From contig WFYJ01000052.1 in NCBI GenBank assembly GCA_015490175.1, positions 10,974 through 74,973 of the forward strand: a stretch of DNA of 64,000 bases, in the 5' to 3' direction. Below the pieces are notes generated by a model that made no database searches, was not told the DNA's origin, and saw only the letters and a list, made by a program, of their open reading frames with translations. Below are positions 282 to 62,734 of this stretch, one piece after another. The stretch is from Saprospiraceae bacterium. Lineage in GTDB: Bacteria > Bacteroidota > Bacteroidia > Chitinophagales > Saprospiraceae. The position numbers were made by a program, and so were the translations under genes. How positions within the stretch are numbered: position 1 is the stretch's first letter; the number at the start of each line of letters is the position of its first letter.

Positions 282-512
282 AGCTGGAAGATTTGAGGAT
301 CGAGCGCACTGAAAAAAGTCCGGAAGATCGTTCAGTTACACAGAGCATCCACCGAGCACACACTGAGTTTCAAAGAGTTGCAAAAACTGCGCGCAAACTG
401 CGTCCATCTGCGGCTGAAAGCTGCGGTTTTTGGCTGAGCAATCGAGGAACCGAGGATTTGACAAGAAATTGGTGATCAACAAGAAAAACGCCAAACGCCA
501 AACCCTCAACCA
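282..512. repeat. intergenic mosaic repeat cluster R1 (family-B unit plus (GAACCGAG)n and CCCTCAAC modules)
   Basis: Contains gatttgaggatcgag..ctgaaaaaagtccgg..cagttacacagagc..gagttgcaaaaactgcgcgcaaactgcgtccatctgcggctgaaagctgcggttt..gaggaaccgaggatttgac. The same modules recur at 9876, 17715, 41085, 42395 (reverse), 50505 and 62540. Confidence 0.85.
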
Positions 513-613
513 GCAAAAAAGGCAGTCCGGCACCACGGCCGAACTGCCCTTACCCGACTATGTAATGACTCTGATGCGTTGGCCGCCGCGAATGGCGTGC
601 CGCATCCGGTCGT

Positions 614-1534
614 TTATGCGATGTAGAGTCCACCCGGCGTTTTGCCCGGCTCACTCGTTTCGGCGATGACCTCCTCTTCGTAGAGGAAGCGCACTTTGGC
701 CTTGACGGGATTGCCCACGCCCACCAAGGCTGAGGGCTTGAGGTCTTTCTCACACAGTGCCTTGCACACCTGCACCAGCTCGTCAGTTTTCGGCATGATG
801 CCCGGATGGATGTGATAGTCAATGGTGCCGCCGAAGAAGCCCGACTGGGCCACGTGGTTGAGGATGCCCTGGTAGGTCTGCACGACGGTGGTGGCGAAGC
901 GCTCGTAAGAGTCGAAGCCGATGGCGACCAGCACGTTGCCGTTTTCCTTGTGCTGGCCGATCTGCAGGAACGAGCCGTCGTCGCTCTGTTGCTGGCCTTC
1001 GTTTTCGTCCATGACAGCAATAGCCACGATCTCGCCATCTTCCAGCATGAACAGCGAGGTGGTGATGGGTTCACTCTCGCCCGACTGGTACATCTCGAGG
1101 GCGATATGGCCGAGCCGTTCGATCTGTTCCTGCTGATCGGCATCCACGGCGAGCAGGAAGCCCTGCATGGGAATGGCCACGACGATGGAAGCGGCCCCCA
1201 GCTTTTCCTGAACCTGTTTCATGAAGCCCGGCTCGAGGATGGTCTCGGCGGTGAGCGGGTGATTCTGCACGAAAGCAATCTTGAACCCTTCCACCTCTTC
1301 GACGCCGATGTCGAGATTCAGCTCGCGCAGAGCGGCGAGACTTTCTTCCTCGTATCTGGGCAAGAGCACCTTGAGCTCTTCTTCGCTCTGCGCTTCCAGA
1401 ATGTGTACGTCTTCACCTTCCAGCTTGCCATAGGCTACCACCGGGCTTTGCGGGTGGTCGGCGAGCTGCTGGCGGAAAATGAGGGGATGGTTGGCTGCCC
1501 AGCCGGCTGGCCTGAGAATGGGAATGATGGACAT
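614..1534 (-). CDS. hypothetical protein (acidic, cytoplasmic-looking; family not recognised)
   Basis: The track ORF 614..1576 starts at TTG; the first ATG is at 1534 (MSIIPILRP...). It is a long protein-like ORF with no competing gene, and the other-frame ORFs here look like GC-rich shadows. Confidence 0.6.
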   Translation of the reverse strand: MSIIPILRPAGWAANHPLIFRQQLADHPQSPVVAYGKLEGEDVHILEAQSEEELKVLLPRYEEESLAALRELNLDIGVEEVEGFKIAFVQNHPLTAETILEPGFMKQVQEKLGAASIVVAIPMQGFLLAVDADQQEQIERLGHIALEMYQSGESEPITTSLFMLEDGEIVAIAVMDENEGQQQSDDGSFLQIGQHKENGNVLVAIGFDSYERFATTVVQTYQGILNHVAQSGFFGGTIDYHIHPGIMPKTDELVQVCKALCEKDLKPSALVGVGNPVKAKVRFLYEEEVIAETSEPGKTPGGLYIA

Positions 1535-1666
1535 GAGTAAAGTAAAAATTGATGAAAAAATGGAATTCCGAACCAATTCGAAGTAGTACGATGTCGGAAT
1601 ACAGTTACAACAGTTGGTGCAGATGAGGGTTGTCTTGCTTTCGCAAAAAGAAGGAAAATCTGCGAG

Positions 1667-2821
1667 TTAATGTCCATGCCGGGCCACTTTTTGCGAAAGC
1701 AGCGAGACAATTTCATCGGCCACGCGACGGGCCACGCCCGGCTGTCCGAGCTTTTTGCGCAAAGCGGCATATCCGGATTGCACTTGCGCCAGGCGCTCGG
1801 GATCGAACAACTGATCCAGCTCGGCGGCCGTGCGCGCCGCGTTGAAGTCGTCCTGGATCAGCTCGGTCACCAGCGCCTCACCCATGATCAGGTTGACCAG
1901 CGAGATGTAAGGCACCTTGATCAGTCGCCGGGCAATGAGGTAGGAAAGATAGTTGCCGCGGTAGCACACCACCTGCGGTACGCCGAACATGGCCGTTTCG
2001 AGCGTGGCCGTGCCCGAGGTGACCAGCGCCGCATCAGCTACCGACAGCAGCGGCCACGTCTGGTTGTGCACCAGATGCAGGTTGTCGCTCCGGGCACGCG
2101 CAAAGAATGGCGAGTAGCACTCGGGATCCATGGAAGGAGCGCCCGCAATGACGAACTGTCGGTGGGGCTGGCGCTGCGCCACCTCCAGCATCACGCCGAG
2201 GGCACGCCTGATTTCCTGCTTTCGGCTCCCCGGCAGCAGGGCCACGATGGGTGTATCGGTGTCCAGGCCATGCCTTTCGGCAAATGCCGCCCGGTCGGGT
2301 GCTTGCCCTTCCAGGAAATCGGTCACTTCGTCCACGAGGGGATGCCCGAAATACGACACCTCGATGCCATGACGCGCGTAAAACGCCTGCTCGAAAGGCA
2401 GGATCACGAACATGCGATCGACCGACCGACGGATGGTCGCTACCCTGCCCTCCTTCCAGGCCCACACTTGCGGACTGATGTAGTAGAATACCTTGATGCC
2501 GCGGGCTCTGGCCCACTGCGCCATGCGCAGATTGAAGCCCGGATAGTCGATGAGGATGAGCGCATCGGGCCGAAAGGCGAGGATGTCGCGCTTGCATTTG
2601 GCCATGAGCCTCAGGATGGTCGGCAGGTTGCGCACCACCTCGACGAAGCCCATGAAGGCCGTGTCGCGGTAGTGCACGTCGAGCTGCATGCCCTCGCGCG
2701 CCATCAGGTCGCCGCCCCAGCCGCGCACCCTGGCATCGGGATCGGCCTGGTGCAATCCGCGCACCAGCCACGAGCCGTGCAGGTCGCCAGAGGCCTCTCC
2801 TGCTATGATGTAGTATTTCAT
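1667..2821 (-). CDS. lpxB: lipid-A-disaccharide synthase
   Basis: N-terminus MKYYIIAGEASGDLHGSWLV... and overall length (384 aa) fit LpxB. ATG at 2821. Confidence 0.95.
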   Translation of the reverse strand: MKYYIIAGEASGDLHGSWLVRGLHQADPDARVRGWGGDLMAREGMQLDVHYRDTAFMGFVEVVRNLPTILRLMAKCKRDILAFRPDALILIDYPGFNLRMAQWARARGIKVFYYISPQVWAWKEGRVATIRRSVDRMFVILPFEQAFYARHGIEVSYFGHPLVDEVTDFLEGQAPDRAAFAERHGLDTDTPIVALLPGSRKQEIRRALGVMLEVAQRQPHRQFVIAGAPSMDPECYSPFFARARSDNLHLVHNQTWPLLSVADAALVTSGTATLETAMFGVPQVVCYRGNYLSYLIARRLIKVPYISLVNLIMGEALVTELIQDDFNAARTAAELDQLFDPERLAQVQSGYAALRKKLGQPGVARRVADEIVSLLSQKVARHGH

Positions 2822-5322: not shown

Positions 5323-5396
5323 GACTCCGTAGCTCAGCTGGTTAGAGCACTTGACTTTTAATCAAGGGGTCCTGGGTTCGAATCCCAGCGGAGTCA
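5323..5396 (+). tRNA. tRNA-Lys (anticodon UUU)
   Basis: Folded by hand into a cloverleaf: acceptor GACTCCG/CGGAGTC, D-arm GCTC/GAGC, anticodon stem CTTGA/TCAAG with loop CTTTTAA, T-arm CTGGG-TTCGAAT-CCCAG, discriminator A. CCA is not encoded. Confidence 0.9.
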
Positions 5397-5404
5397 CAAA
5401 TGCG

Positions 5405-9835: not shown

Positions 9836-9995
9836 TGACAATGGTCAATGGTCAATGGACTATAGACTTTTTGATCGAGGAACCGAGGAATGAGCCTGCT
9901 GAAAAAAGTCGGAAAATCATTCAGCTATACAGAGCATCCCCTGAGAATGCACTGAGTTTCACAGAGTTGCAAAACCAAACTCTGAACCATAAACT
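9836..9995. repeat. intergenic mosaic repeat cluster R2
   Basis: Contains (CAATGGT)n gacaatggtcaatggtcaatggactatagac, gaggaaccgagg, and ctgctgaaaaaagtcgg..cagctatacagagc..ctgagtttcacagagttgcaaaacc (a partial family-B unit). Confidence 0.8.
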
Positions 9996-10044
9996 TTCCA
10001 GGCTGCCAACTTCAGATACCTGCACGCTACTTTTTTCAGTAGCA

Positions 10045-11199
10045 TCAGGCCTCTTCGCCTCGCAAGATCTGGCGCGAGATGACGAGCTTCTGGATCTCGG
10101 ACGTGCCTTCGCCGATGGTACAGAGTTTGGCGTCGCGGTAATACTTTTCCACCGGGAACTCCTTGATGTAGCCGTAACCCCCAAAAATCTGCACGGCTTC
10201 GTTGGCCACCTGAACGGCTGTTTCGGAAGCGTAGAGCTTGGCCATGGCCGAGATGGTGGTCGTGCGCATGCCGGCATCTTTCCTGGCTCCGGCTTTGCGG
10301 GTGAGCAGCTCGGCAGCCTGAATCCTGGTGGCCATGTCGGCCAGCTTGAACGAGATGGCCTGGAAGTTGGCGATGGGCTGACCGAACTGGTGGCGCTCTT
10401 TCGAGTAAGCTACGGCAGCCTCGTAAGCGCCCTTGGCGATACCTACGGCCAGGGCAGCGATCGAGATGCGGCCGCCATCGAGGATCTTCATGGCCTGGAT
10501 GAAGCCATCGCCCACCTCACCCAGCACCTGGCTCTTGTGGATGCGGCAGTTGTCGAAAATCATCTCGGCCGTTTCCGAAGCACGCATGCCCAGCTTGTTC
10601 TCTTTCTTGCCCGCCATGAAGCCCGGCGTGCCCCGCTCCACGACAAAGGCCGTCATGCCGTGCTTGTCGAGCAGCTCGCCCGTGCGGGCAATGACCACGG
10701 CCACGTGGCCCGACTTGCCGTGTGTGATGAAGTTCTTGGTGCCATTGAGCACGTAGTAGTCGCCATCTTCCACGGCCACGCACTGCATGCGCGCCGCATC
10801 GCTGCCCGTGTTGGGTTCGGTAAGTCCCCATGCGCCGATCCACTCGCCCGATGCCAATTTGGGCAGATAGCGCTGTTTCTGCTCCTCGTTGCCGAACTGA
10901 AGAATATGATTGGTACACAGCGAGTTGTGTGCCGCCACCGACAGACCGATCGAGCCGCAGACTCGGGCAATCTCCTCGATGATGGTGATGTATTCCTGGT
11001 AGCCCAGCCCCGCGCCGCCATATTGCTCGGGCACGAGCACGCCCATGAAGCCGTACTCACCCATGCGGTGAAACAGATCAATGGGGAAATGCTGGGTTTC
11101 GTCCCATTCCATGACGTGTGGGCGGATATACTTTTCTGCAAAATCGCGCGCACTGTCGCGAATCATCGCGAGATTGTCCAACTGCTCGGTAGTAATCAT
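10045..11199 (-). CDS. acyl-CoA dehydrogenase (short/butyryl-CoA dehydrogenase-like)
   Basis: [34 protein letters not shown]..., [14 protein letters not shown], and C-terminal ...[18 protein letters not shown]. The true ATG is at 11199; the track ORF extends to 11550. Confidence 0.95.
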
Positions 11200-12424: not shown

Positions 12425-12476
12425 GAGCCGTCAACTGTTGAAGCAACCCGGTGTTTCCGTTCGTTGTCCCTGAATT

Positions 12477-12689
12477 GGTGGTGTCCTTAAATAGATGATC
12501 GCGCATCCCTGAAATGGACCGGCTGCAAAAAGGTGTTGCGTATAGGGTTTAAAGTTTAAGGTTTAAGGTTTAAAGTTTTTCTTGTTGACTTTCAGTTTTT
12601 TGTCAAATCCTCGGTTCCTCAGCTATTGAAACCGCAGCCTTCGGCCGCAGAAAGTGCAGTCTGAAATCAGTTAATCGGGGACACTACCT
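12477..12689 (+). mobile_element. complete MITE-like unit (family A, about 213 bp) with terminal inverted repeats
   Basis: Left end GGTGGTGTCC (12477-12486) against right end GGACACTACC (12679-12688), 9/10 complementary. Interior: ttaaatagatgatcgcgcatcc..ggaccggctgcaaaaagg, (GGTTTAA)n, ttgtcaaatcctcggttcctc, accgcagccttcggccgcag. The direct repeat CTGAATT flanks it at 12470-12476 and 12690-12696. Related copies lie at 24392, 42159 and 62513 (reverse). Confidence 0.6.
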
Positions 12690-12812
12690 CTGAATTGAAC
12701 CTGTTGGATACAACGGCCGGCCTGTTGAAGCCCGAAAACGATGCATTCATCGAACAATTGTCGCGCGCATCGTGCACAAGGGCACAAATTTGCATCTGAA
12801 AAGCGAAATGCC

Positions 12813-13847
12813 ATGAAAACCCGCACCGCTGCATACGCCCTGATGCTGATTCTGTGCGCAATCGCACATTCGTCGGTCGCCGCACAGGACAAGCCCAGCC
12901 TCATGGACGTGCTCCAGCACGTGGACCTGGCACGCATCGAGGTGCAGGCCGACCTGAGCCGGCTGATGAGCGACATTCAGTCAGCTGAATGGGTGCCCGC
13001 CAGCGTGGTGGTGCGTGCAGGCAGCTTCCGATACACATTCGAGGGCAGGATCCGCCTGCGCGGCCGTTTTCGGCGCATGAACTGCGATTTTCCGCCCCTC
13101 AAGCTCAAAATTCCCAAATCGCAACTGGCCGCTGCCGGCCTCGAGCCCGAGTTCAACGACTTCAAGATCGTCACCCACTGCCTCGACGACCGCTATGCCG
13201 GCAACGCACTCGTCTTGCGCGAATACCTGGTCTATCGGTTCTACAACGCCCTCACTCCCAACAGCTACCGCACCCAACTGGCACGCATGACGTGGGTGGA
13301 CCAGGGCGCCGGCGGCAAGAAGATCCGCCGGTTCGGCTTCCTCATCGAAGACACTGACGAGCTGGCCGCGCGCCTGCACGGTGTGGAAGAAGAGAAGTTT
13401 GGCCTGGCCGGTTCCCGGCTTTCGCCAAACGACACCCGTCTGCTGATGCTGTTTCAGGAACTCATCGGCAATGACGACTGGGACCTGCAGATGGCCCGCA
13501 ACGTCAAATTCATCTACGTGCCCGAACAAAACTGGTACGTGCCGGTGCCCTACGATTTCGACTTCGCCGAGTTCGTGGCCGCCCCCTACGCACGACCCGG
13601 TGCCAAACCCACCCACCTGAGCAGGCACCAATCGCTACAAAACGGCCTGTACCAGAGCCATGTGGCCAGATATTTGCTTGCCAACAAGCAGGTACTTGCC
13701 GAAATCATCAGCTCCAACAGATTCTTGCCCGAATCGGAGAAGGAAACGCTCTTGCTGCGGCTCATGGCGGCCTACAAGCGCCTGGAGCAAAAAGTGCTGA
13801 CACCCGAGGCGCCCGAACAAAAAAAATCCGCAGCAGTTGTGGAATAA
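12813..13847 (+). CDS. secreted hypothetical protein
   Basis: ATG at 12813 gives MKTRTAAYALMLILCAIAHSSVAAQ, a signal peptide. The 344-aa ORF is protein-like and I do not recognise the family. Confidence 0.75.
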   Translation: MKTRTAAYALMLILCAIAHSSVAAQDKPSLMDVLQHVDLARIEVQADLSRLMSDIQSAEWVPASVVVRAGSFRYTFEGRIRLRGRFRRMNCDFPPLKLKIPKSQLAAAGLEPEFNDFKIVTHCLDDRYAGNALVLREYLVYRFYNALTPNSYRTQLARMTWVDQGAGGKKIRRFGFLIEDTDELAARLHGVEEEKFGLAGSRLSPNDTRLLMLFQELIGNDDWDLQMARNVKFIYVPEQNWYVPVPYDFDFAEFVAAPYARPGAKPTHLSRHQSLQNGLYQSHVARYLLANKQVLAEIISSNRFLPESEKETLLLRLMAAYKRLEQKVLTPEAPEQKKSAAVVE

Positions 13848-13912
13848 TAAACTGAAAATCATCGTTGTTCCGACATCACAACCATTGACAGTTTCATACA
13901 CATCCAATTTTT

Positions 13913-13937
13913 GGCCCGGGCAATGCCCGGGTTTTTT
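13913..13937 (+). terminator. rho-independent terminator
   Basis: CCCGGG (13915-20) / CCCGGG (13926-31) hairpin with loop caatg, followed by T6 (13932-37). Confidence 0.6.
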
Positions 13938-14034
13938 GTTGGTCGCTGCAAACAATCGCGCTCAGGCCCATCCTTGCTGCCGACTGTGCCGGCAAGGGAA
14001 AAAATTTCCCGATTCAATTCATTTATTTGCAGCC

Positions 14035-14592
14035 ATGAAAAAGGGCGCATCGTCACGCAAACCGCTGTATTTCGTCGCCACGCTACCACCCTACATGGTA
14101 CGCGAGGAGGTGCACGCCATGAAAAAAGAGATCGCACACACCTGGGGCCCCCGACACGCCCTCAAATCACCTCCTCACATCACGCTCGTCCCTCCATTCC
14201 GCTGGCCGGAACGCGACGAGGAGCAACTCAAGGAAGCACTGCACCGGTTTGCCTGCCACCAGCACAGCTTTCCGGTGGTGCTCGAAGACTTCGGCCGCTT
14301 CGACAAACGCGTCATCTACATCCGCATCCGGCACAATGCCGCCCTGGCTCGCCTGCACTACGACCTCTGCGCCTGGCTCGAACAAAAGGTGCACCTCCAC
14401 TGCAAAGACCGGCGGCCCTTTCGCCCGCACATGACCCTGGCACATCGCGATCTGACCGAGGAGCTGTTTCCCCGAGTGTGGGAAGCATTTGCCGAAAGAC
14501 GATACCAGGCGCATTACACTGCTTCTCACATTGCGCTGCTCAAGCACAACGGCAAATTCTGGGAAATCGAAGCCGAGTATCCGCTTGGATGA
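14035..14592 (+). CDS. 2H phosphoesterase family protein (LigT/ThpR-like RNA 2',3'-cyclic phosphodiesterase / 2'-5' RNA ligase)
   Basis: Two H-x-T-x motifs at the expected spacing (PPHITLVPPF and PHMTLAHRDL). About 185 aa, ATG at 14035. Confidence 0.85.
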   Translation: MKKGASSRKPLYFVATLPPYMVREEVHAMKKEIAHTWGPRHALKSPPHITLVPPFRWPERDEEQLKEALHRFACHQHSFPVVLEDFGRFDKRVIYIRIRHNAALARLHYDLCAWLEQKVHLHCKDRRPFRPHMTLAHRDLTEELFPRVWEAFAERRYQAHYTASHIALLKHNGKFWEIEAEYPLG

Positions 14593-14639
14593 GGGCACGC
14601 GTACGATTTCGGAACTCCCATTTCCTGCCTTCGCTTTTA

Positions 14640-14745
14640 CACTCACTTCACAGGCAGACGCGCTGCCGTGCGTCTCTACCTCAATCTCTCCGTCACTCCT
14701 CACTCCATCACTCTGTCACTCCCTCTCAAAATTCCCGGACCGGAT
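14640..14745. repeat. intergenic mosaic repeat cluster R4
   Basis: Contains ggcagacgcgctgccgtgcgtctctacc (hairpin module), a CT-rich ctcactcc-type tract, and aaaattcccggaccgg. Confidence 0.75.
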
Positions 14746-14786
14746 TGCGCTGGGTACATGCACGCGCACCCCGCCTGCAGGCAAGT

Positions 14787-14824
14787 CTTTCATTTTGAAA
14801 AAAGCGCCCCTTTCAAAATGAAAG
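14787..14824. repeat. perfect 14-bp inverted repeat with a 10-nt spacer
   Basis: CTTTCATTTTGAAA (14787-14800) and TTTCAAAATGAAAG (14811-14824). Confidence 0.8.
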
Positions 14825-14968
14825 GGTCCGGAAGTTCCGGCCAGAGACACATTTTTCAACAATCCCACTCAAAACACTGTGGATCAACAACAAACAGCTT
14901 TGCCCGCTCAAAAGCCGGCACAGGCGGAACGCTATTGGTCATGGCAAAGGCAAACAAACAAATGCGTG

Positions 14969-15091
14969 ATGTGGCAAGTGTGGTTTTTCGGCATTCTGTT
15001 CCTCCTGCTGGCCTGCGCCGGATGGGTGTTCACACTTGCCGACCGGCACGACCGCTCATCCTTTTCCTCAAATAAAAAACGAGAACCATGA
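14969..15091 (+). CDS. possible 40-aa single-pass membrane micro-protein, translationally coupled to the sigma factor gene
   Basis: ATG at 14969 gives MWQVWFFGILFLLLACAGWVFTLADRHDRSSFSSNKKREP. Its TGA (15089-15091) overlaps the sigma factor ATG (15088-15090) as ATGA. No homology evidence is available. Confidence 0.3.
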   Translation: MWQVWFFGILFLLLACAGWVFTLADRHDRSSFSSNKKREP

Positions 15092-15603
15092 CCGCACTCG
15101 AGTTCAATCATTACTTCTCGGAGATGGAACACCAACTGCTTCCCTTCGCCCTGCGCATGACCAAAAATCTGGAAGACGCCCGGGATTTGCTGCAAGAGAC
15201 GGCCATGCGGGCATGGTTTCACAAGGACAAGTTCGAGGCAGGCACCAACTTCAAGGCCTGGGCGACCACCATCATGCGCAACACTTTCATCAACATGTAT
15301 CGCAAAAAGCGCAACCGCGCTACCAGCAGCGAGCCCTCCGACAGCCATGTGTTCATAAACGAGCGCCACGCCACCGACAACGAAGCCCACAGCCACATCA
15401 TGATGGACGAGCTGGCCCGCATTGTGGACAGCATCGGCACTACCTACAGCGTGCCGTTCATGATGTTCTACCGGGGATACAAATACGAGGAAATCGCCGA
15501 GGCGCTCGACATCCCCATCGGCACGGTCAAGAGCCGCATCTTCACCGCGCGTGAGAAGTTGCGCCAGGCCATCCAGCAGCGCTTCCCCGACTTCAAGATA
15601 TAG
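15088..15603 (+). CDS. RNA polymerase sigma-70 family (ECF-type) sigma factor
   Basis: Region 2 (EDARDLLQETAMRAWFHKDKF..FKAWATTIMRNTFINMYRK) and region 4 HTH (YKYEEIAEALDIPIGTVKSRIFTAREKL). Confidence 0.9.
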   Translation: MTALEFNHYFSEMEHQLLPFALRMTKNLEDARDLLQETAMRAWFHKDKFEAGTNFKAWATTIMRNTFINMYRKKRNRATSSEPSDSHVFINERHATDNEAHSHIMMDELARIVDSIGTTYSVPFMMFYRGYKYEEIAEALDIPIGTVKSRIFTAREKLRQAIQQRFPDFKI

Positions 15604-15633
15604 CCCACAAGCCAGTGACTATAGACACCTTCG

Positions 15634-15669
15634 GGTTTCTGTCGCCTCGGCGTGGCAGAAACCTTTTTT
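15634..15669 (+). terminator. rho-independent terminator after the sigma factor gene
   Basis: GGTTTCTG..CAGAAACC hairpin (15634-15663) followed by T6 (15664-15669). Confidence 0.7.
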
Positions 15670-15711
15670 CTTTCGACCTTGCACATCCATCAAGACAGCT
15701 CCCTGTGAGGC

Positions 15712-17658
15712 ATGCCTGAGTCGAACCGTTGGGATACGTGGTCGTCAGCCATCAATGAGCACCTGCATCAGGGTGTGGCTTTCCTGCAGCGCGTCTTCCG
15801 CGAGGTGTGGGAGGAGTTTCGCGCTCCGCTCGTGTTCGTGAAGACCAAAATCAGGCTGGCCCTGCTCATCCTCTTCGGGGCCATTGCGCTGCTGGGTGGT
15901 GTGGGTTCATGGGCGCTCAACAGCATCAGCGAGCAGGCCGTCCAGATGATGGAAGAGAATTACCAGACGATGGCCTACACGCGCGAGATGTCGATGGCCC
16001 TTACCGAGATGGTGCAGGTGGTGGCCTTGCAGCAGAGCACCTCGTCGTTTCGTCGCGTCAACCTGCGCAAGGCATTCGACCGCTTCGAGCGCTATCTGGA
16101 GCTGTTGCGCGAGCAGGTGGCCGAAGGGCAGGAACGCGAACTGCTGCTGCAGGTCGAATCGGGCTTTGCCATGCTGCGCGGCAATTTGCAGGCCTTGCAA
16201 AATACGCGCGACCTGACGCCGCAGGTCTATATCCAGTTGCTCAACCTGCAAGATCTGCTCGAATCGGTCTATCAGCTCAACGAGGCGGAAATCAAGCGCA
16301 AGTCGGCCGAAGTAAAGGCCATGGCCGACCGCGTGTCGCTGTTCATGATCATGCTCGGCCTGGTGTTTTTCATTTTCGCGCTGTTGGCCATGTACTACTT
16401 CCCGCTGTACATCACCCGACCGGTGGCCGAGCTCCACCACGGCATCGAACAGATTGCGGCCAAGAACTACAGCGAGCGGCTGGACATGCCGCAAGCCGAC
16501 GAATTCGGACAGTTGGCACGGGCCTTCAACGAAATGGCCGAGCGCCTCGAGCAATACGAAAAGCTGAACTACGTGCAGTTGCTGGCCGAAAAGCGACGCA
16601 TCGAAACCCTGATCAACGAAACGCGCGATGCCATCTTCGGCATGGACAATGAAGGCATCATCCTGTTCGCCAACCGCGCTGCCCTCGACCTGTTGGGCGC
16701 ACAGGACGAAAACGAAGTGGTCGGGCACCATCCCTCAGCACTCCTCAATCGCTTTCCCCTTACGGAAAAAATTTTTCACGAAATCATTGAAGGCCGCCCC
16801 ATCACTTCCGACATGACCCTGCCCGGCATCGCCCTCGACCAGTCGCAAACGGAGCTCTACTTCAGCAAAGACGTGCTGGTCGTGCACTCGGAAAACGACA
16901 ATGGCAAGTCGCCCTTCGGCTACCTGGTAGTGATGAAGAACGTGACCGAGCTGAAAAAGCAAGACCTGGCCAAAACGCGCTTCATGGCCACCCTCTCGCA
17001 CGAACTCAAAACGCCGCTATCGGCCATCGGCATCTCCTTGCGCCTGTTGCAGGATCATCGCGTCGGCCCCCTCAATGCCGAACAGGAAGAGCTGGTGCGC
17101 ACCATCCATCAAAATGCCTCGCGCCTGCTGCAAATGGTCAACGAAGTGCTCGACATTTCGCGCATCGAAACGGGCAAGGAAGCCTTCGAGCCGGCCGCAC
17201 ATCCGCCTTGCCAACTGGCACGCCAGGCCATCGCGGAAACCCGAACCCTCGCACGCGACCGCAAGGTGCGGTTGACCCTTCAATGCGACACCCACAGCGA
17301 GGTGATGGCCGACGCCCGAAAAACAGTGGCCATCCTGACCAACCTGCTCACCAATGCCATTCGGTACTCGCCCGAAGGCGACACGGTGCACGTGCACGTC
17401 ACGCGCCGCGATGGAGAAATCCTGTTTTCTGTAAAGGATAACGGCCCGGGCATCGCACCCGAAGAGCTGCCACGACTGTTCCAGCGCTACGAAAGACGCA
17501 GGGGCGACCGCACCAGAGGCACCGGCCTGGGCCTGGCCATCTCACGCGAGTTTGCCGAAGGGCAAAACGGTCGTATCGAAGTGCACAGCAGGCCCGGCGA
17601 AGGAAGCACCTTCACGCTCGTACTGCCCACAGCAGCAGAAGGGAGAGGGAGGGAGTGA
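15712..17658 (+). CDS. sensor histidine kinase (TM sensor - HAMP - PAS - HisKA - HATPase_c)
   Basis: H-box ATLSHELKTPLSAI, N-box LTNLLTNAIRYSP, G-boxes VKDNGPGI and GTGLGLAISREF, with HAMP and PAS-like segments upstream. The stop lies inside a (GGGA/GAGT)n microsatellite. Confidence 0.9.
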   Translation: MPESNRWDTWSSAINEHLHQGVAFLQRVFREVWEEFRAPLVFVKTKIRLALLILFGAIALLGGVGSWALNSISEQAVQMMEENYQTMAYTREMSMALTEMVQVVALQQSTSSFRRVNLRKAFDRFERYLELLREQVAEGQERELLLQVESGFAMLRGNLQALQNTRDLTPQVYIQLLNLQDLLESVYQLNEAEIKRKSAEVKAMADRVSLFMIMLGLVFFIFALLAMYYFPLYITRPVAELHHGIEQIAAKNYSERLDMPQADEFGQLARAFNEMAERLEQYEKLNYVQLLAEKRRIETLINETRDAIFGMDNEGIILFANRAALDLLGAQDENEVVGHHPSALLNRFPLTEKIFHEIIEGRPITSDMTLPGIALDQSQTELYFSKDVLVVHSENDNGKSPFGYLVVMKNVTELKKQDLAKTRFMATLSHELKTPLSAIGISLRLLQDHRVGPLNAEQEELVRTIHQNASRLLQMVNEVLDISRIETGKEAFEPAAHPPCQLARQAIAETRTLARDRKVRLTLQCDTHSEVMADARKTVAILTNLLTNAIRYSPEGDTVHVHVTRRDGEILFSVKDNGPGIAPEELPRLFQRYERRRGDRTRGTGLGLAISREFAEGQNGRIEVHSRPGEGSTFTLVLPTAAEGRGRE

Positions 17659-17905
17659 GGGAGTGAGTGAGTGAGTGAGTGAGTGAGTGAGGGAGGGAGG
17701 GAGGTACCAACAGTGCCGGCGCTGCGTCAGTCTGCGGCTGAAAGCTGCAGTTTCAATGAGTGAAGAACCGAGGAACCGAAGAACCGAGGATTTGATTCGA
17801 GAGCCCGCTTCAGTTACACAGAGCGCCACTGAGTACGCACTGATTTTCACAGAGTTGCAAACCCTGAACCCTGAACCCCAAACGCTCAACGCGCAACCAT
17901 CGCAA
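17641..17905. repeat. intergenic mosaic repeat cluster R5, including a (GGGA)n(GAGT)n microsatellite at 17641-17703
   Basis: Contains gggagtgagggagtgagtgagtgagtgagtgagtgagtgagggagggagggagg, ctgcgtcagtctgcggctgaaagctgcag, (GAACCGAG)n gatttga, cagttacacagagc..cacagagttgcaaa and ccctgaaccctgaacccc. Confidence 0.85.
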
Positions 17906-29191: not shown

Positions 29192-29193
29192 TC

Positions 29194-41898: not shown

Positions 41899-41904
41899 GC
41901 TCAG

Positions 41905-42610: not shown

Positions 42611-42629
42611 GGAACAAAACCGACGACTC

Positions 42630-43616
42630 ATGCTCAGAAGACCAAGGCGCAACCGACAGAGCGCAGCCGTACGTGGCTTGGTGCGCGAGACACAGCTCGA
42701 CACGAGCCATCTGGTGTATCCGCTCTTTCTCGTGGACGGCAAGGATGTGAAGGAAGAGATTCCCTCCTTGCCCGGCAACTACCGCATGTCGCTCGACCAC
42801 ATGCTGCGCGAGATCGGCGAATGCATGGCACTGGGGCTGCGCAGCTTCATCGTGTTTCCGGCCGTGCCCGACGCGCGCAAAGACCGGGAAGCCACCTACA
42901 GCTACGACCCCGACAACTTTTACCTGAAAGCCGCCCGTGCCATCAAGAGGGAATTCCCCGAATGCTGCCTGATGAGCGACGTAGCCATGGACCCCTACAG
43001 CTCCGACGGCCACGACGGGCTGGTGCGCGGCGGCAAAATCCTCAACGACGAGACGCTGCCCATCCTGGCACGCATGGCCGTGGCCCAGGCCGAGGCCGGC
43101 TTCGACTTCCTCGGGCCCTCCGACATGATGGACGGCCGCGTGGGTTATCTGCGCGAAGCGCTCGACGCAGCAGGCTATACCGACACGGGCATCCTGTCCT
43201 ACACGGCCAAATACGCCAGCGCCTTTTACGGCCCCTTCCGCGATGCCCTCGACAGCGCCCCCCGCGCCGAGGCCGACATCCCCGGCGACAAAAAGACCTA
43301 CCAGATGGATCCGGCCAACAAGCGCGAGGCCCTCATCGAAGCCGAACTCGACACCATGGAAGGCGCCGACATGCTCATGGTCAAGCCGGCCCTCAACTAC
43401 CTCGACGTGATCCATTTGCTGAAAAGCGAATTCGAGCTGCCCATAGCGGCCTATCACGTCAGTGGCGAATGTGCCATGCTTATCGCCGCCTGTCGCAATG
43501 GCTGGCTCGATTACGAGCAGGCCATGCCCGAAACCCTGCTCGCCATCCGACGGGCCGGCGCCGACATCATTCTGACCTACTTCGCCAAGGATTTTGCGCG
43601 CATGCAGCAGCGATAG
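42630..43616 (+). CDS. hemB: porphobilinogen synthase (delta-aminolevulinate dehydratase)
   Basis: MLRRPRRNRQSAAVRGLVRETQLDTSHLVYPLFLVDG..., with MVKPAL..YLD and AYHVSGEYAM-like (AYHVSGECAM) active-site regions. Confidence 0.95.
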   Translation: MLRRPRRNRQSAAVRGLVRETQLDTSHLVYPLFLVDGKDVKEEIPSLPGNYRMSLDHMLREIGECMALGLRSFIVFPAVPDARKDREATYSYDPDNFYLKAARAIKREFPECCLMSDVAMDPYSSDGHDGLVRGGKILNDETLPILARMAVAQAEAGFDFLGPSDMMDGRVGYLREALDAAGYTDTGILSYTAKYASAFYGPFRDALDSAPRAEADIPGDKKTYQMDPANKREALIEAELDTMEGADMLMVKPALNYLDVIHLLKSEFELPIAAYHVSGECAMLIAACRNGWLDYEQAMPETLLAIRRAGADIILTYFAKDFARMQQR

Positions 43617-43669
43617 CGTCGCCCGAACCGATGATACCCCCAGAGTGGTCCGGTAAACCTTTGCGCACG

Positions 43670-43785
43670 GGGTGAAATCGGTGGAATCGGTGGAATCGGT
43701 GGAATCGGTCAATTCCCCCAATCAACCAAAGGCACTCCTCACTCCCTCCCTCACTCCGTCTCAAAATTCCAAACCGGATTGGGCC
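43670..43785. repeat. intergenic mosaic repeat cluster R13
   Basis: Five 9-mers (ggtgaaatc ggtggaatc x3 ggtcaattc, 43671-43715), a CT-rich ctcactcc tract, and aaaattccaaaccgg. Confidence 0.8.
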
Positions 43786-43856
43786 GAGCATATTCTCCGG
43801 AAAAACTGCACGCTCAACCTTGCCGCTGGGAGGTGCCGCGCAGCTTTGCGGCAAGC

Positions 43857-43893
43857 AAAAAAAGAGGGCGCCCGACTCACGTTCGGGTGCCCT
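43857..43893 (-). terminator. rho-independent terminator (minus strand) after the sigma factor gene
   Basis: Hairpin AGGGCGCCCGA (43865-75) / TCGGGTGCCCT (43883-93) with one mismatch. The A7 run at 43857-63 is T7 on the minus strand. Confidence 0.65.
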
Positions 43894-43964
43894 TGTTTCT
43901 TTCATGTTCAGGGATCGAAAAAAGGTTTTTCGGGCTTGCGACCACCTGCTCGGCAGGAGCGGAC

Positions 43965-44555
43965 TCAGCCCTCGTGCTGGAGCACGTGCTCCTGCTCGGC
44001 AATCATCTTTCGGATGTTGATGAGTGCATACCGCATGCGGCCCAGCGCCGTGTTGATGCTCACGCGGGTGAGCGCGGCAATCTCCTTGAAACTCATGTCG
44101 GCGTAATGGCGCAGGATGACCACCTCGCGCTGTTCGGGCGGCAGGCGGTCCACCAGCTCGCGCACCTTCTGGTGGGCCTGGCTCTTGATGAGCTGCTGCT
44201 CACCATTGGGTTCCTTGCTGCCCAGCACGTCGAAGATGTCGAACTCTTCGGTGGCGTACATGGTGGGCCGGCGCTTCTTGCGGCGGAAGTTGTCCACGCA
44301 CAGGTTGTAGGCAATGCGCATCACCCACTGGCTGAACTTGCCCTGGTGATTGTATTTGCCCTTGCGCAGCGTGTCCACCACCTTGATGAACACTTCCTGG
44401 AAGATGTCCTCGGCCATGGCCTTGTCCTTGACGAACATGTAGATGGCCGTGTACACCTTGTCCTTGTACCGGTTGAGCAGGGTTTCGAAAGCCTTGTCGT
44501 CGCCATTCAGATAGCGTTCGATGAGCTGCTGGTCGTTCAGCGGCGCAAACTCCAT
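43965..44555 (-). CDS. RNA polymerase sigma-70 family (ECF-type) sigma factor
   Basis: MEFAPLNDQQLIERYLNGDDKAFETLLNRYKDKVY.. (region 2) and ..MSFKEIAALTRVSINTALGRMRYAL (region 4). The track start at 44561 is TTG; the ATG is at 44555. Confidence 0.9.
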   Translation of the reverse strand: MEFAPLNDQQLIERYLNGDDKAFETLLNRYKDKVYTAIYMFVKDKAMAEDIFQEVFIKVVDTLRKGKYNHQGKFSQWVMRIAYNLCVDNFRRKKRRPTMYATEEFDIFDVLGSKEPNGEQQLIKSQAHQKVRELVDRLPPEQREVVILRHYADMSFKEIAALTRVSINTALGRMRYALINIRKMIAEQEHVLQHEG

Positions 44556-44791: not shown

Positions 44792-44950
44792 GGTCAAATC
44801 GGTGGAATCGGTGGAATCGGTGAAATCGGTGAAATCGGTGGAATTGGTGGAATTGGTGGAATTGGTGGAATCGGCACTCACTATCCATCGGCAAAAATTC
44901 CCGGACCGGCAGACGCACTGCCGTGCCAGACGCTGCCGTGCGTCGCTACA
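44792..44950. repeat. intergenic mosaic repeat cluster R14
   Basis: Nine tandem 9-mers (ggtcaaatc, ggtggaatc x2, ggtgaaatc x2, ggtggaatt x3, ggtggaatc; 44792-44872), aaaattcccggaccgg, and cagacgcactgccgtgccagacgctgccgtgcgtcgctac. Confidence 0.9.
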
Positions 44951-47621: not shown

Positions 47622-47780
47622 ATTGCGAATCTTTGCGTCCCTGATGCTCAGAACAAGCTTTCCGACAAGTCGGAACAGGTTTTGCGTGAGGCTACAGATT
47701 TTTTCAGTGGCCTCATTCCTGAGGCCCCTGAAAAAACCCCAAATCTCACGCAACGATGCTAGGACGCAACGATTCGTAAT
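47622..47780. repeat. long nested inverted repeat (about 160 bp potential stem-loop or MITE) in the AT-rich spacer
   Basis: Outer arms attgcgaatctttgcgtcc (47622-40) and ggacgcaacgattcgtaat (47762-80), 17/19 complementary. Central hairpin TTTTTTCAGTGGCCTCA-ttcc-TGAGGCCCCTGAAAAAA (47699-47736). A half copy (ggacttttttcagtagcctcattcc) lies at about 47875-47900. Confidence 0.7.
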
Positions 47781-47987
47781 ACGTTTTTTGCTTTAATTCA
47801 GCTTGTTATTTATGGTGTTACGCGTCACGCGTTACGATGTCACTGCCTGCCCCGACCAAAGTCGGGGGTGTCACGGACTTTTTTCAGTAGCCTCATTCCT
47901 CAAATCAAAAAACATCCATCGTCTATCGGCCATTGACCATCATCAAAACTACTGAAGCAGGTTGCGGTGGGTAAGATTATGTGTGAG

Positions 47988-50360: not shown

Positions 50361-50674
50361 GCGCGAGGAATGGGAGAAATGGGAGATGGAGAGAGAGTGA
50401 GAGAGTGTGTGTGAGTGAGTGAGTGAGTGAGTGAGTGAGCGAGCGCACGAAATTGTACAGTGGTGCCAAACGCTCAACGCTACACGCTCAACCCTCAACC
50501 TTGTCAAAAACTGCGTTCAAACTGCGTGAATCTGCGGCCGAAGGCTGCGGTTTCAATGCGTGAGGAACCGAGGAACCGAAGAATCGAGGATTTGACAAGA
50601 AACTGATAGTCAACAAGAAAAACTTTAAACTTTAAACTTTAAACTTTAAACCCTCAACTCCAAACTCTCAACCC
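50361..50674. repeat. intergenic mosaic repeat cluster R16; ends directly at the ATG of the next gene
   Basis: Contains (GGGAGA/GAGT)n microsatellite at about 50365-50447, cgctcaacgctacacgctcaaccctcaacc, actgcgttcaaactgcgtgaatctgcggccgaaggctgcgg, (GAACCGAG)n gatttgac, ctgatagtcaacaag, (AACTTTA)x4 at 50621-50651, and ccctcaactccaaactctcaaccc followed by ATG at 50675. Confidence 0.9.
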
Positions 50675-52105
50675 ATGCTCCGTTTGCGCTTTTTGCTGTT
50701 CGGCCTCTTCGTGCTCTTTTTGGCGAAAGCCGAAGCCCAGATGACGCCCAAAAAAGAAGCAGCCCTCGCCTCAATCGAGCGACACAGGGAAGCACTGATC
50801 GAATTGAGCGACAAAATCTGGGCTGCCGCCGAGACGGCCTTCCACGAAGAAGAATCGTCGCGCCTGCTGGCCGACTATGCCGAGGCCAACGGCTTTCGCG
50901 TCACGCGCGGCGTGGCCGGCATGCCGACGGCCTTCATCGCCGAATACGGCTCGGGCCGCCCCATCATCGGCATTCTGGGTGAGTTCGATGCACTGCCGGG
51001 CCTGTCGCAAAAGGCCGTACCCCAGAAAGAGCCGCTCGAGCCCGGCGCTGCGGGCCACGGCTGCGGGCACAACCTCTTCGGTGCGGGCAGCCTCGGCGCC
51101 GCCATCGCCATCAAGGAACTCATCGAAGACGGCCGGCTCAAGGGCACCATCCGGTTCTACGGCACGCCGGCCGAAGAGAAGTACTTCGGCAAGCTGTACA
51201 TGGCCCGCGAAGGGCTGTTCGACGACCTGGACGCCTGCCTCGACTGGCACCCCAGCGCCAAAACCAAGGCCAACGTCCAGAGCTCACTGGCCATGGTGGA
51301 CTTCGAAGTGGAGTTCTTTGGCCAGGCCGCACACGCTGCCGGCGACCCCTGGAACGGCCGCAGCGCCGTGGACGGCCTCGAGCTTTACACCACCGGCATC
51401 CAGTACCTGCGCGAACACATCAAGCCCACCGTGCGCATCCACTACCAGATCGAAAAGGCCGGCGACGTGGCCAACGTCGTGCCCGACTACGCGCGCATCT
51501 GGACGCGCGTGCGCGACACCAAACGCGAGGGCATGATGGAAGTCTATGAGCGGGTGAAGCAAATTGCCAAAGGGGCGGCGCTCATGGCCAATGTCGATTA
51601 CAAGATCACGCTGGTGGCCGGCCTGCACGAAGTACTGGTCAACCGCACGGGTGGCGAAGTGCTCCACAAAAACCTCGAATTGCTCGGCCCCATCGAATAC
51701 ACCGATGAAGAAATCGAGTTTGCGAAAGCGATACAACGCGCCACGGGCAAGCCCGAAAAAGGCATTGACGGCTCCATCCAGCCGCTCGAAGAGACGAAGG
51801 AAAACCCGGGCGGCGGCTCTACCGACGTGGGCGACGTGAGCTGGATCGTGCCCGAAATCCGGCTGGGCGTCACTACGGCCCCCATTGATACGCCCTGGCA
51901 CTCGTGGGCCGTGGTAGCCTGTGGCGGCATGTCGATCGGACACAAGGGCATGCTGCACGCTGCCAAAGCCCTGGCCATGACCATCGTGGACCTCATGGAA
52001 AACCCGGATATCCTGCAACAGATGCGCAAGGAGTTCGAAGAAAAACGCGGCGACTACCAGTACAAACCCATCCTGCCCGATGGGCCGCCCCCTATCGGGA
52101 TGTGA
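50675..52105 (+). CDS. M20 family amidohydrolase (AbgB / aminobenzoyl-glutamate utilisation-like), secreted
   Basis: Signal peptide, then ..HEEESSRLLADYAEANGFRV..IGILGEFDALPGLSQ..GHGCGHNLFGAGS.. typical of the M20D/AbgB group. Confidence 0.9.
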   Translation: MLRLRFLLFGLFVLFLAKAEAQMTPKKEAALASIERHREALIELSDKIWAAAETAFHEEESSRLLADYAEANGFRVTRGVAGMPTAFIAEYGSGRPIIGILGEFDALPGLSQKAVPQKEPLEPGAAGHGCGHNLFGAGSLGAAIAIKELIEDGRLKGTIRFYGTPAEEKYFGKLYMAREGLFDDLDACLDWHPSAKTKANVQSSLAMVDFEVEFFGQAAHAAGDPWNGRSAVDGLELYTTGIQYLREHIKPTVRIHYQIEKAGDVANVVPDYARIWTRVRDTKREGMMEVYERVKQIAKGAALMANVDYKITLVAGLHEVLVNRTGGEVLHKNLELLGPIEYTDEEIEFAKAIQRATGKPEKGIDGSIQPLEETKENPGGGSTDVGDVSWIVPEIRLGVTTAPIDTPWHSWAVVACGGMSIGHKGMLHAAKALAMTIVDLMENPDILQQMRKEFEEKRGDYQYKPILPDGPPPIGM

Positions 52106-52222
52106 TGGGATGAGGGCGAGAATCGGCGAAGGAGGGACACCAGCACAGCTGATGCACCGATTCCGCCGCTTCCGCCAGTGGCACCGATTGCACCGTGAAA
52201 ATCCTCAACCATTCCCACCCCC
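52106..52222. repeat. degenerate repeat remnants (cluster R17)
   Basis: Contains caccgattccgcc..caccgattgcaccg (reverse 9-mer units) and cctcaaccattcc. The match to the other clusters is weak. Confidence 0.35.
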
Positions 52223-61815: not shown

Positions 61816-61876
61816 TCACCTCCGGGCGGGAAGCGAGCATGCAGCAGGGTGCTTCCCGCCGCAAATATTTCCCGCT

Positions 61877-62488
61877 ATGAATCGCATCCTCCTGGCCTTT
61901 TCTGCACTGGTATGGGTGTCTGCCAGCTACCTCATCCAGGACATCAACTACCGCCCGCGCCTGTTGCTCAAGGTACTGAAAAAGTACGACGTGCCGGGCT
62001 TTGAGGCACTGCAGCCTCTCCCCGTACCGCACTACGGCCCCACACCGGGCAAGTACTTTGAGATCCGCACGCCCGAATCGGAAGTGCGCTACGTGTACGT
62101 AGGGCGCGTGAACAGTTGCCGCACCGGCGGCTGCAATGAGCCCGACAAACCGATCGATCCCGGGCAACTGGAAAGCGAATTTTTTGACTATTTCCTGCTC
62201 TTCGACGAAACGGTACACGTGCGCGCCATCCGCGTGTACAACTACGAAGCCAGCTACGGCTACGAAATCACCGCGCCCGGCTGGCTCCGCCAGTTCCTCG
62301 GCTACGACGGAACACGCGAACTGATCGTCGGAAAGGATGTCGATGCCATCACCGGCGCTACCGTGTCGGTCTATGCCATCACGGCCGACGTCGAAACCAG
62401 AACACGGCAGTTGCAAGAGTGGCTGGAGAAGAACCGCCAGCCCACCGTAGATTCATCGGCGGCAGACGGTGAAGAAAAGGTACATTGA
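61877..62488 (+). CDS. FMN-binding domain protein (membrane-anchored)
   Basis: ATG at 61877 (MNRILLAFSALVWVSASYL, an anchor). VDAITGATVSVYAIT is the FMN_bind covalent-flavinylation-type motif. Confidence 0.8.
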   Translation: MNRILLAFSALVWVSASYLIQDINYRPRLLLKVLKKYDVPGFEALQPLPVPHYGPTPGKYFEIRTPESEVRYVYVGRVNSCRTGGCNEPDKPIDPGQLESEFFDYFLLFDETVHVRAIRVYNYEASYGYEITAPGWLRQFLGYDGTRELIVGKDVDAITGATVSVYAITADVETRTRQLQEWLEKNRQPTVDSSAADGEEKVH

Positions 62489-62512
62489 CCAGTGGGCAAG
62501 CTGTCAGCAAGG

Positions 62513-62734
62513 GGTAGTGTCCCCGATCAACTGATTTTAGACTGCGTTTTCTGTGGCCGAAGGCTGCGGTTTCAATGGATGAGGAACCGAGGAACCGAGG
62601 ATTTGAGGATTTGAGCAAGCACCTGATAGTCAATGCAAAAAACGCTCAACGCTACACGCTCAACCCTCAACGATTCACCTTTCTGCAGCCGGTTTATTCT
62701 CGGGATGCGCGATCCTTTATTCAAGGACACCACC
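62513..62734 (-). mobile_element. complete family-A MITE-like unit (reverse orientation), 20 nt upstream of murF
   Basis: GGTAGTGTCCccgatcaactgattttagactg.. at 62513 and ..ggatgcgcgatcctttattcaaGGACACCACC ending at 62734. The interior has the same module order as the 12477 unit, reverse complemented. Confidence 0.6.

Follow-up and report, generated by a model that had tools for sequence, protein, structure and literature searches.

In cyanobacteria, short tandemly repeated repetitive (STRR) heptanucleotides form intergenic tandem arrays, and small dispersed repeats, which are tiny mobile repeats, insert into other repeats. In the Bacteroidota, BrickBuilt from Porphyromonas gingivalis, a MITE (miniature inverted-repeat transposable element), consists of a leader, a spacer-less tandem array and a tail, with small inverted-repeat ends (PMC4596501). 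It is always intergenic and species-restricted, with one 23-nt brick and 19 copies per genome, and promoter activity has been reported for it (PMC4596501). Canonical repetitive extragenic palindromic (REP) sequences are stem-loops that have a 5' GT[AG]G at their foot (PMC3733652, PMC6006769). In the survey of these repeats, the GTAG type was found in Proteobacteria, Cyanobacteria, Chloroflexi and the PVC group, and Bacteroidetes had CGTC repeats only; CGTC-tagged REPs combine a stem of 8-9 bp, which has the CGTC at one end, with a loop of 4-5 nt and a CCA tail (PMC3733652). As far as they are described there, Neisseria intergenic mosaic elements (NIMEs) are segments bounded by 20-bp dRS3 repeats, of the CGTC type (PMC3733652). 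Here we analyse the intergenic repeats of a stretch of 64,000 nucleotides from a Saprospiraceae bacterium (assembly GCA_015490175.1, contig WFYJ01000052.1, positions 10,974 to 74,973), hereafter the window. We conclude that the repeat clusters of the window are probably small non-autonomous elements bounded by terminal inverted repeats (TIRs), piled up as MITE-like composites together with REP-like hairpins, and that they are specific to a single Saprospiraceae lineage at the level of a genus.

The window is a chromosomal segment of ~60% G+C from a member of the Bacteroidota. Its proteins include, according to Pfam, a CHU_C/type-IX-secretion protein, a peptidase S46, a DUF4293 protein, LpxB and an OstA-like protein, and three of its proteins have their closest named homologues in Saprospiraceae metagenome-assembled genomes. 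Near-identical DNA was found in an ENA metagenome assembly (contigs L001 and L011) and in a Logan contig (L012). The sequence base of the analysis is these 64 kb of genome and ~230 kb from relatives.

Dispersed repeats in the intergenic spacers

A self-BLAST of the window revealed dispersed repeats that are almost exclusively intergenic and form 17 clusters; one more, at 47680-47895, was added by reading the sequence, which agrees with the 18 loci of the initial annotation of this DNA. All 14 modules distinguished there were found again, with counts far above those of shuffled sequence. The E1 module (AACCGCAGCYTTCRGCCGCAGA) had 10 matches at <=3 mismatches, against 0.00 expected from 100 shuffles, and the D module (CAAATCCTCGGTTCCTC) had 9 matches against 0.04, while the H module together with a GTAG tag matched four times at <=1 mismatch, against 0.00. 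Tandem arrays identified with TRF had periods of 4 (GAGT), 7 (GGGTTGA, GTTTAAA and CAATGGT), 8 (CCTCGGTT, CTCACTCC) and 9 nt (GGTGGAATC). The elements are 110-450 nt in size and non-coding, and each module is present in 4-10 copies in the 64 kb.

We took a census of the gaps of at least 30 nt (n = 41) on a gene map made from Pfam hits and the gene calls of related contigs. Modules were present in 17 of the 41 spacers: 11 of 27 between tandem genes, 4 of 7 between convergent and 2 of 7 between divergent ones. All types of junction are therefore occupied, and the module map has the modules in both orientations, as first described; the statement that about half of the gaps consist of repeats was slightly generous, the figure being 41%. 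In length, modules cover 3.95 kb of the 9.6 kb of spacer DNA (41%), or ~6% of the window.

The clusters are listed below. A and T, J and J', and F3 denote the ends of elements, C and F linkers, D an 8-mer array, G a CT-rich array, I a 9-mer array, and E1 and H hairpins; E2 and K are further modules.

Cluster 1: 309-511, minus strand, between convergent genes (self-BLAST, module map); F3 (309-330), F (331-384), E2 (385-404), E1 hairpin (407-428), D (440-461), C' and a short 7-mer array
Cluster 2: 9839-10047, no strand assigned; (CAATGGT)3 at 9839-9858, D' units, and an F3-type element at 9891-10047 with the ends TGAGCCTGCTGAAAAAAG ... CTTTTTTCAGTAGCATCA
Cluster 3: 12477-12689 within 12470-12696, plus strand; A..T MITE with A, 7-mer array, C, D, E1 and T
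Cluster 4: 14655-14743, plus strand; REP-like hairpin H, CT-rich G array, J' end (AAAATTCCCGGACCGG)
Cluster 5: 17640-17877, minus strand; (GAGT)n, E1, 8-mer D array, F, 7-mer array
Cluster 6: 24392-24723, plus strand, filling the spacer from SDR to MptE; A, 7-mer array, C, D (six 8-mer units), E1, E2, (TCACTCAT)n
Cluster 7: 25466-25528, plus strand; 9-mer I array followed by an H hairpin
Cluster 8: 28768-29191, plus strand, splitting the junction of DoxX and the sigma-54 activator and touching the start codon of the latter; J..J' composite at 28780-29049 (J, 7-mer array, D, E1, E2, G, K, J'), three head-to-tail H at 29050-29119, G array
Cluster 9: 31217-31350, plus strand; J, 9-mer I units, CT-rich G array, J'-like end
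Cluster 10: 37036-37203, plus strand, downstream of the L27 terminator; J-like end, (GGTSGAATC)n of ~8 units, CT-rich G array
Cluster 11: 40968-41319, minus strand; complete reverse J..J' composite with J, K', G', E2', E1', D', F3/F, 7-mer array and J'; perfect TIR core GGTTCGGGAA (40988-40997) / TTCCCGAACC (41290-41299)
Cluster 12: 41905-42158, minus strand; GCC-GAAA-GGC hairpin, (GAGT)n-like array, F, 7-mer units, J'-like end
Cluster 13: 42159-42610, plus strand; A..T composite of 452 nt, with an F3-type element nested in its D array at 42295-42530 (18-nt TIR TGAGCACACTGAAAAAAG / CTTTTTTCAGGGGCCTCA)
Cluster 14: 43663-43775, plus strand, between the ALAD stop codon and a conserved terminator; (GGTGGAATC)4, G array, J'-like end
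Cluster 15: 44792-44949, plus strand, inserted 3' of a 77-aa gene and absent in L009 and L007; (GGTGGAATC)9, J' end, two H hairpins
Cluster 16: 47680-47895, no strand assigned; F3-type element at 47720-47895 with a 17-nt TIR, and the tail of a second copy directly upstream
Cluster 17: 50365-50674, minus strand; (GAGT)n, 7-mer array, E2, E1, D array, C, and a long 7-mer array running up to the M20 peptidase ATG (50675)
Cluster 18: 62513-62734, minus strand; complete reverse A..T composite with T', E1', D', C', 7-mer array and A'

Short-read contigs of other assemblies start or stop at the clusters: L001 starts at window position 42586, L012 spans 12690-17678, and L010 is a 2.1-kb contig ending in modules. 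Such breaks, and the N-gaps that relatives' contigs have at clusters, are what one would see if the clusters were chimeric joins of repeat-rich reads, made in assembly or scaffolding; they are also the expected behaviour of repeats that are high-copy and dispersed. The chimera concern, raised with the first description, is answered by L011, an independent ENA metagenome scaffold that is collinear with window 2813-23846 at 99.9% identity and crosses four clusters with no Ns, so the clusters are not an artefact of a single assembly. L001, a second independent scaffold, matches at 99.8% identity through five more, yet has an N-gap in the 9-mer array at 44800, and the unique flanks of the clusters are orthologous to those of relatives. 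We consider the chance that the clusters are artefacts negligible. They explain the poor assembly of this uncultured lineage's genomes, and provide signatures for masking or scaffolding.

Searches for known repeats returned little. In Rfam, both at gathering thresholds and at E<=1, only the tRNA-Lys gene matched, and none of the clusters did; this tRNA-Lys(TTT) gene, at 5323-5397, is the sole Rfam/ARAGORN match in the window, and its spacers are module-free. A 706-nt multi-module stretch had zero BLAST matches in plasmids and phages. In exact-match scans, the A1 pattern had 0 matches in GTDB species representatives, metagenome contigs and IMG/VR; the E1 pattern had only chance matches inside unrelated coding sequence, in GTDB (among the matches listed) and in metagenome contigs; and in IMG/VR neither the E1 nor the D pattern had any (0 each). 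The repeats had not been recognised as a described REP, bacterial interspersed mosaic element (BIME) or MITE family. These searches agree with that as regards the family; that the repeats fall outside these kinds is not supported, since one insertion is that of a textbook MITE and the tenth of the modules first listed is a GTAG-tagged, REP-like hairpin (both below). CRISPR arrays are made of 23-50 nt repeats separated by unique spacers of similar length; the arrays found by TRF in the window have periods of 4-9 nt and no spacers.

Module order and the three terminal inverted repeat frames

When consensus modules were mapped on the window, their order and relative orientation proved to be strongly constrained, contrary to the changing order reported before. 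D is followed by E1 in the same orientation at all nine loci (9/9), and E1 by either E2 or T, the order E1-E2 being kept wherever both are present; upstream of D come a 7-mer array and then linker C or F. The polarity of the 7-mer array is fixed as well, running GGGTTGA > GAGTTTA > AAGTTTA toward C in all copies, including those of relatives, and the arrays were therefore inherited with the element and not made anew at each locus. What had been taken for a shuffled kit is a set of collinear fragments of TIR-bounded composites, nested in one another.

These composites have three TIR frames: A/T, with GGTRGTGTCC ends; J/J', with the ends TATACNCAA..GGTTCGGGAAAT and a GGTTCGGGAA core; and F3, with TGAGGCCNCTGAAAAAA. 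The three have an internal core in common, in which a polar 7-mer array is followed by linker C or F, then by an 8-mer array and the E1 hairpin; E2 is present in some cases. The boundaries of J and F3 elements were set by their TIRs and by comparison of copies, and those of the A..T copy at 12477-12689 by an empty site.

A..T composites contain A, the 7-mer array, C, D, E1 and T, and end in GGTGGTGTCC / GGACACTACC. Copies are located at 12477-12689, 62513-62734 and 42159-42610, and another, starting at 24392, is without the T end. The A/T termini pair with each other in the computed fold, and a copy in the related contig L020 has a TIR of 15 nt with 93% complementarity. The J..J' frame, whose two ends correspond to modules 11 and 13 of the initial annotation, has a perfect 10-nt TIR core (GGTTCGGGAA / TTCCCGAACC), and by eye the likeness extends ~20 nt further outward. 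Its interior is of two types, one with a 7-mer array, C or F, D, E1, E2, a CT-rich array and K (28780-29049; 40968-41319), the other with 9-mer and CT-rich arrays (31229-31350, 37036-37203, 43663-43775). H hairpins come after J' ends, one to three of them head-to-tail. F3-type elements have TIRs of 17-18 nt (TGAGGCCNCTGAAAAAA / TTTTTTCAGNGGCCTCA, formerly module 8) with 83-88% complementarity, and were found at 42295-42530, 47720-47895 and 9891-10047, and also in L015 and L020. The first of these lies within the 8-mer (D) array of the A..T composite at 42159-42610, and F3-type elements are nested likewise in L020 and L015.

Insertion and turnover in related genomes

The A..T copy at 12477-12689 is a 213-nt insertion in the spacer that separates the alkaline-phosphatase gene from the next one. 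It is flanked by CTGAATT at 12470-12476 and again at 12690-12696, a 7-bp target-site duplication (TSD). Four contigs (L013, L014, L015 and L016), which come from two related assemblies and two Logan runs and whose proteins are 87% identical, have the empty site with a single CTGAATT: they read ...GTTGTCACTGAATTACACC..., versus, with the insertion in parentheses, ...GTTGTCCCTGAATT(GGTGGTGTCC ... GGACACTACCT)CTGAATTGAACC... in the window.

Other spacers also differ in length between the window and its relatives: 425 nt from DoxX to the sigma-54 activator, versus 78 (L020), 28 (L017) and 117 (L018); 263 nt from the helicase to the acyl-CoA dehydrogenase, versus 89 nt in L013; and 339 nt from SDR to MptE, versus 39 nt in L018. 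The modules are also found in the close relatives GCA_054032755.1, GCA_964401445.1 and GCA_966194585.1, either at different loci or, at shared ones, differently combined. Between relatives, composites are present, absent or replaced at a given site. L020 has a 397-nt A..T composite with a nested F3-type element 16 nt upstream of the FAD-protein gene, where the window has a J / 9-mer composite; L021 carries a different composite from the window upstream of the M20 gene; and 9-mer, 7-mer and CT-rich arrays stand in L013 at the place of the window's H, G and J'. In L010, E-like and 7-mer modules occur on both sides of ALAD, along with a new array of hairpins alternating with GATGTTGAGA, and those at the place of cluster 14 (43663-43775) differ from the window's. 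The distant relatives L007, L008, L018 and L019 (49-51% G+C), and L009 and L017, have no modules in the regions examined, with one exception in L017, a C'-like stretch and a heptamer array adjoining the DAO start codon. The spacers of more distant relatives are short, for example 28-117 nt where the window has 425. This is a very fast turnover of spacers between congeners, with different composites in the same spacer and an operon junction of 28-78 nt becoming one of 425 nt.

The arrays vary in length too. The (GAGT)n of cluster 17 differs by one unit from the 99.8%-identical L001, which has the extra one, and the 9-mer I array of cluster 7 has 3-4 units in the window vs ~8 in the orthologous copy of L020. 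An apparently longer 9-mer array in L001 was rejected as a polymorphism because the scaffold has an N-gap there.

The hairpin array of L010 belongs to a module that the relatives have in addition, consisting of short G+C-rich hairpins in alternation with GATGTTGAGA, a direct repeat that reads TCTCAAC on the opposite strand. It forms mini-arrays at L010 1-230 and 1549-1650, L021 2030-2080 and L020 250-330; none was noticed in the window. The convergent M20/CHU spacer of the window (52150-52215), counted as repeat-free, has weak 9-mer-like units (CACCGATTC) and a single 7-mer unit, and its L021 orthologue has hairpin/TCTCAAC arrays instead. The yidD gene, directly upstream of ALAD in L008, L009 and L010, is absent from the whole window (tblastn), in which its position is taken by a 731-nt repeat cluster (41899-42629); it may have been lost, or moved elsewhere, in connection with the repeats. 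In L010 a translated heptamer array makes up the annotated yidD N-terminus, which points to an over-called start.

In the explanation that we consider probable, a transposase encoded elsewhere in the genome would move the elements in trans, by DDE-type cut-and-paste or copy-and-paste with a 7-bp target duplication. The elements would insert into intergenic DNA, preferentially into earlier copies, as F3-type elements in 8-mer arrays, and nesting, partial deletion and recombination would then produce the mosaic clusters, with the internal short-period arrays changing length by slippage. The transposase is likely to be of the DDE type because a TSD is present, and HUH/IS200-type (IS200/IS605 family) and REP mobilisation are not known to make one. 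All three frames presumably move alike, and the elements may still be active.

Several observations weigh against this explanation. The other three of the four complete A/T copies have no 7-bp duplication, and no convincing TSD was found for J and F3 copies. In the window copies the A/T TIR is short, with nine complementary positions in 10 nt. One core shared by three TIR frames is not expected of simple deletion derivatives of three different insertion sequences, and therefore recombination, or nesting plus deletion, must be invoked. Neither the window nor the related loci (~230 kb) yielded a transposase with matching ends, and the copy counts are those of the 64-kb window.

A further reading, which we see as possible though unlikely, is that of a self-nesting system with consequences for the host, in which the arrays are self-made landing pads and the ends portable 5' leaders. 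The pads could arise from iterated target duplications or excision footprints, each element recruiting the next. The array periods of 7, 8 and 9 nt match the one 7-bp TSD and the usual range of DDE duplications, and nested F3-type elements are flanked by 8-mer units. On this reading, the J end and the A/T-rich 7-mer array would replace the native 5' leader at start codons and make up a portable leader/promoter set, and E1 would act at the RNA level.

Hairpins and the search for a mobilising enzyme

E1 has an 8-bp stem and a GAA loop, and folds on the CTGCGG strand only (as DNA, -4.8 kcal/mol, z -2.2; complement -1.6 kcal/mol, z +0.2). In an alignment of 15 copies from four genomes, 96.7% of cells are paired, and any shift of register reduces this to 29-53%. 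The closing pair is U-A in nine copies and C-G in six (n = 15), and three more, one-sided changes retain pairing (G.U to G-C, U.G to U-A, C-G to U.G). Because it folds on one strand, has a compensatory change and loses its pairing on a register shift, E1 is predicted to be a strand-specific single-strand structure, of RNA or of ssDNA. A larger conserved RNA over E2-E1-D was dismissed, only the E1 stem and a weak 4-bp E2 stem being supported, and E1 as an intrinsic terminator was dropped, as a consensus scan of 24000-43999 did not call it. E1 does not fit the CGTC-tagged REPs: its 8-bp stem carries a GAA loop of 3 nt, its tail is TT(T/G), and the CGTC upstream varies in sequence and distance.

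H reads, on the minus strand, GTAG-N-GACGCAC-GGCA-GTGCGTC, that is, a 7-bp stem with a GGCA loop (-8.5 kcal/mol, z -3.5) and, as in canonical REPs, a 5' GTAG at the foot of the stem-loop. It could thus be asked whether the clusters are REP/BIME-type mosaics, with H, E1 and the GT[AG]G-bearing A/T termini as single-stranded DNA substrates of a REP-associated tyrosine transposase (RAYT; TnpA-REP, an HUH tyrosine transposase). H, with 4-5 copies vs 0 expected and its stable hairpin, points that way, and so do the one-strand fold of E1, whose G.T wobbles and compensatory pair fit a single-strand substrate, the GTGG or GTAG in both A/T termini, and the report that RAYT subclasses 2.4 and 2.6 are common in Bacteroidetes (PMC6006769). 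However, the sole documented insertion, that of an A..T composite, carries a 7-bp target duplication, which REP mobilisation is not known to make. All H copies are on the same strand, head-to-tail, and do not form the inverted doublets of REPINs; most modules (the arrays, C, F and K) are non-palindromic; and no Y1_Tnp domain was found in the open reading frames (ORFs) tested. The whole A..T element as a REPIN-like long hairpin was also rejected, being no more structured than shuffles (z -0.3, +0.1). We regard RAYT mobilisation of the clusters as doubtful, although a separate RAYT-type component made up of the H hairpins alone is plausible.

In agreement with the initial annotation, no transposase, RAYT or integrase domain was found with Pfam and NCBIfam in the tested ORFs of the window. 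Unannotated ORFs beside clusters, in the window and in relatives, had no transposase domain, and no TIR pair enclosing a long ORF was found in ~300 kb of sequence.

All H hairpins (14655, 25503, 29050-29119, 44910-44949) and all 9-mer I arrays (25473, 31251, 37062, 43671, 44792) have the same orientation, on the plus strand, and the plus strand has a C>G skew along the whole window; H and I may be biased in orientation relative to the direction of replication or transcription. Another small hairpin, TTTGCC-GAAA-GGCAAA, is found just after stop codons, both in this genome and in distant relatives (29165-29191, 41905-41945, L013 2883 and L018 ~9960), and may be a family-wide terminator-like motif, apart from the mobile modules.

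Contact with neighbouring genes

Composite ends touch start codons at 50675 and 28768 (0 nt), and the J end is 5 nt from that of the FAD-protein at 31211. Across three genomes, element ends (A/T-rich heptamer array, J end or A end) are located 0-16 nt upstream of the start codons of several genes. The contact sites are:

Window: 50620-50677, 28766-28800, 31209-31250
L017: 1233-1280 (DAO)
L021: 480-525 (M20)
L020: 4025-4053 (FAD)

From these positions it seems that 5' leaders are supplied or replaced by the elements, which may influence how neighbouring genes are expressed. Bacteroidota have atypical promoters and translation starts; at the contact sites, no Bacteroidota-type promoter motif was evident by eye.

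The contacts, including the heptamer array at the DAO start of L017, would also be seen if the modules were host regulatory or structural signals (promoters, leaders, terminators, small RNA genes, protein sites), kept by selection and not mobile. The strand-specific pairing of E1 with its compensatory change would suit such a role, as would the orientation of its folding strand, which at four of five tandem junctions coincides with the flanking genes' sense strand. Yet the same genes in relatives have none or other modules, and because orthologous sites are empty or differently filled, the modules are required by no gene. Further points against this are the insertion with a TSD, the lack of any Rfam match, the conservation across copies of the E1 hairpin alone as a structure, and the scan of 24000-43999, in which E1 was not called as a terminator and sigma-70-like promoter sites were not enriched. 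For J in particular, a native promoter motif of the adjoining genes was rejected, since it is missing upstream of the orthologues in L017, L018 and L020. We find selected, immobile signals very improbable as the source of the clusters; composites that were mobile may conceivably have been exapted by host genes.

Elements also reach the ends of genes. The histidine-kinase gene (15712-17658) takes its final residues and its stop codon from the (GAGT)n array at 17640-17703, and its C-terminus is ..AAEGRGRE* in the window vs ..VAVEE* in L013. In the F3-type element at 9891-10047, the right TIR (10030-10047) overlaps the acyl-CoA dehydrogenase stop codon (10045-10047). With its fast spacer turnover, and with arrays extending into one stop codon and as far as start codons, this lineage is a natural test bed for the rewiring of Bacteroidota expression by MITEs.

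Comparison with known repeat systems

The composites resemble bacterial MITEs such as the Neisseria Correia and cyanobacterial Nezha elements in being small, non-coding, multi-copy, intergenic and bounded by TIRs, and also in nesting, in presence or absence between close relatives and in the TSD, here of one copy. Unlike these, they have no similarity to the sequences searched, and their interiors are polar arrays of period 7, 8 and 9; moreover, three TIR frames share one core here, whereas the usual case is that of common ends with a variable interior. With the cyanobacterial STRR sequences they have in common intergenic heptamer arrays and the insertion of repeats into repeats, but phylum and units differ, and here the heptamers are inside TIR-bounded elements, with fixed polarity.

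BrickBuilt, from the same phylum, is likewise an array-bearing intergenic MITE, and its promoter activity is relevant to the composites at start codons described here. By comparison of descriptions only, the window differs from it in having arrays of 4, 7, 8 and 9 nt plus hairpins, nesting, and ~41% of spacer DNA occupied. The REP, REPIN and BIME sequences with RAYTs of E. coli and Pseudomonas (PMC3733652, PMC6006769, PMC3116915) share with H the 5' GTAG and hairpin, and BIMEs are, like the clusters, intergenic mosaics of hairpins and short motifs, of lineage-specific families. The differences are that H forms direct repeats with a 7-bp stem, that the one composite for which this can be told makes a TSD, and that no RAYT was found in the ORFs tested. 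The Neisseria dRS3/RS mosaics, as far as the survey describes them, are similar in being large intergenic mosaics of several interleaved repeat families (PMC3733652); judged from that description, the clusters differ from NIMEs in their TIRs, one TSD and tandem-array interiors, and they have no Rfam match.

The general picture of bacterial repeats is unchanged by these findings, although H is a GTAG-type, REP-like hairpin in the Bacteroidota, a type unreported for the phylum in the 2013 survey (PMC3733652). The repeats of the window are new families of a known kind, nested MITEs and REP-like hairpins, and what is unusual about them is the density of 41% of spacer DNA, the single core in three TIR frames, the polar 7-, 8- and 9-mer arrays inside elements and the insertions at start codons.

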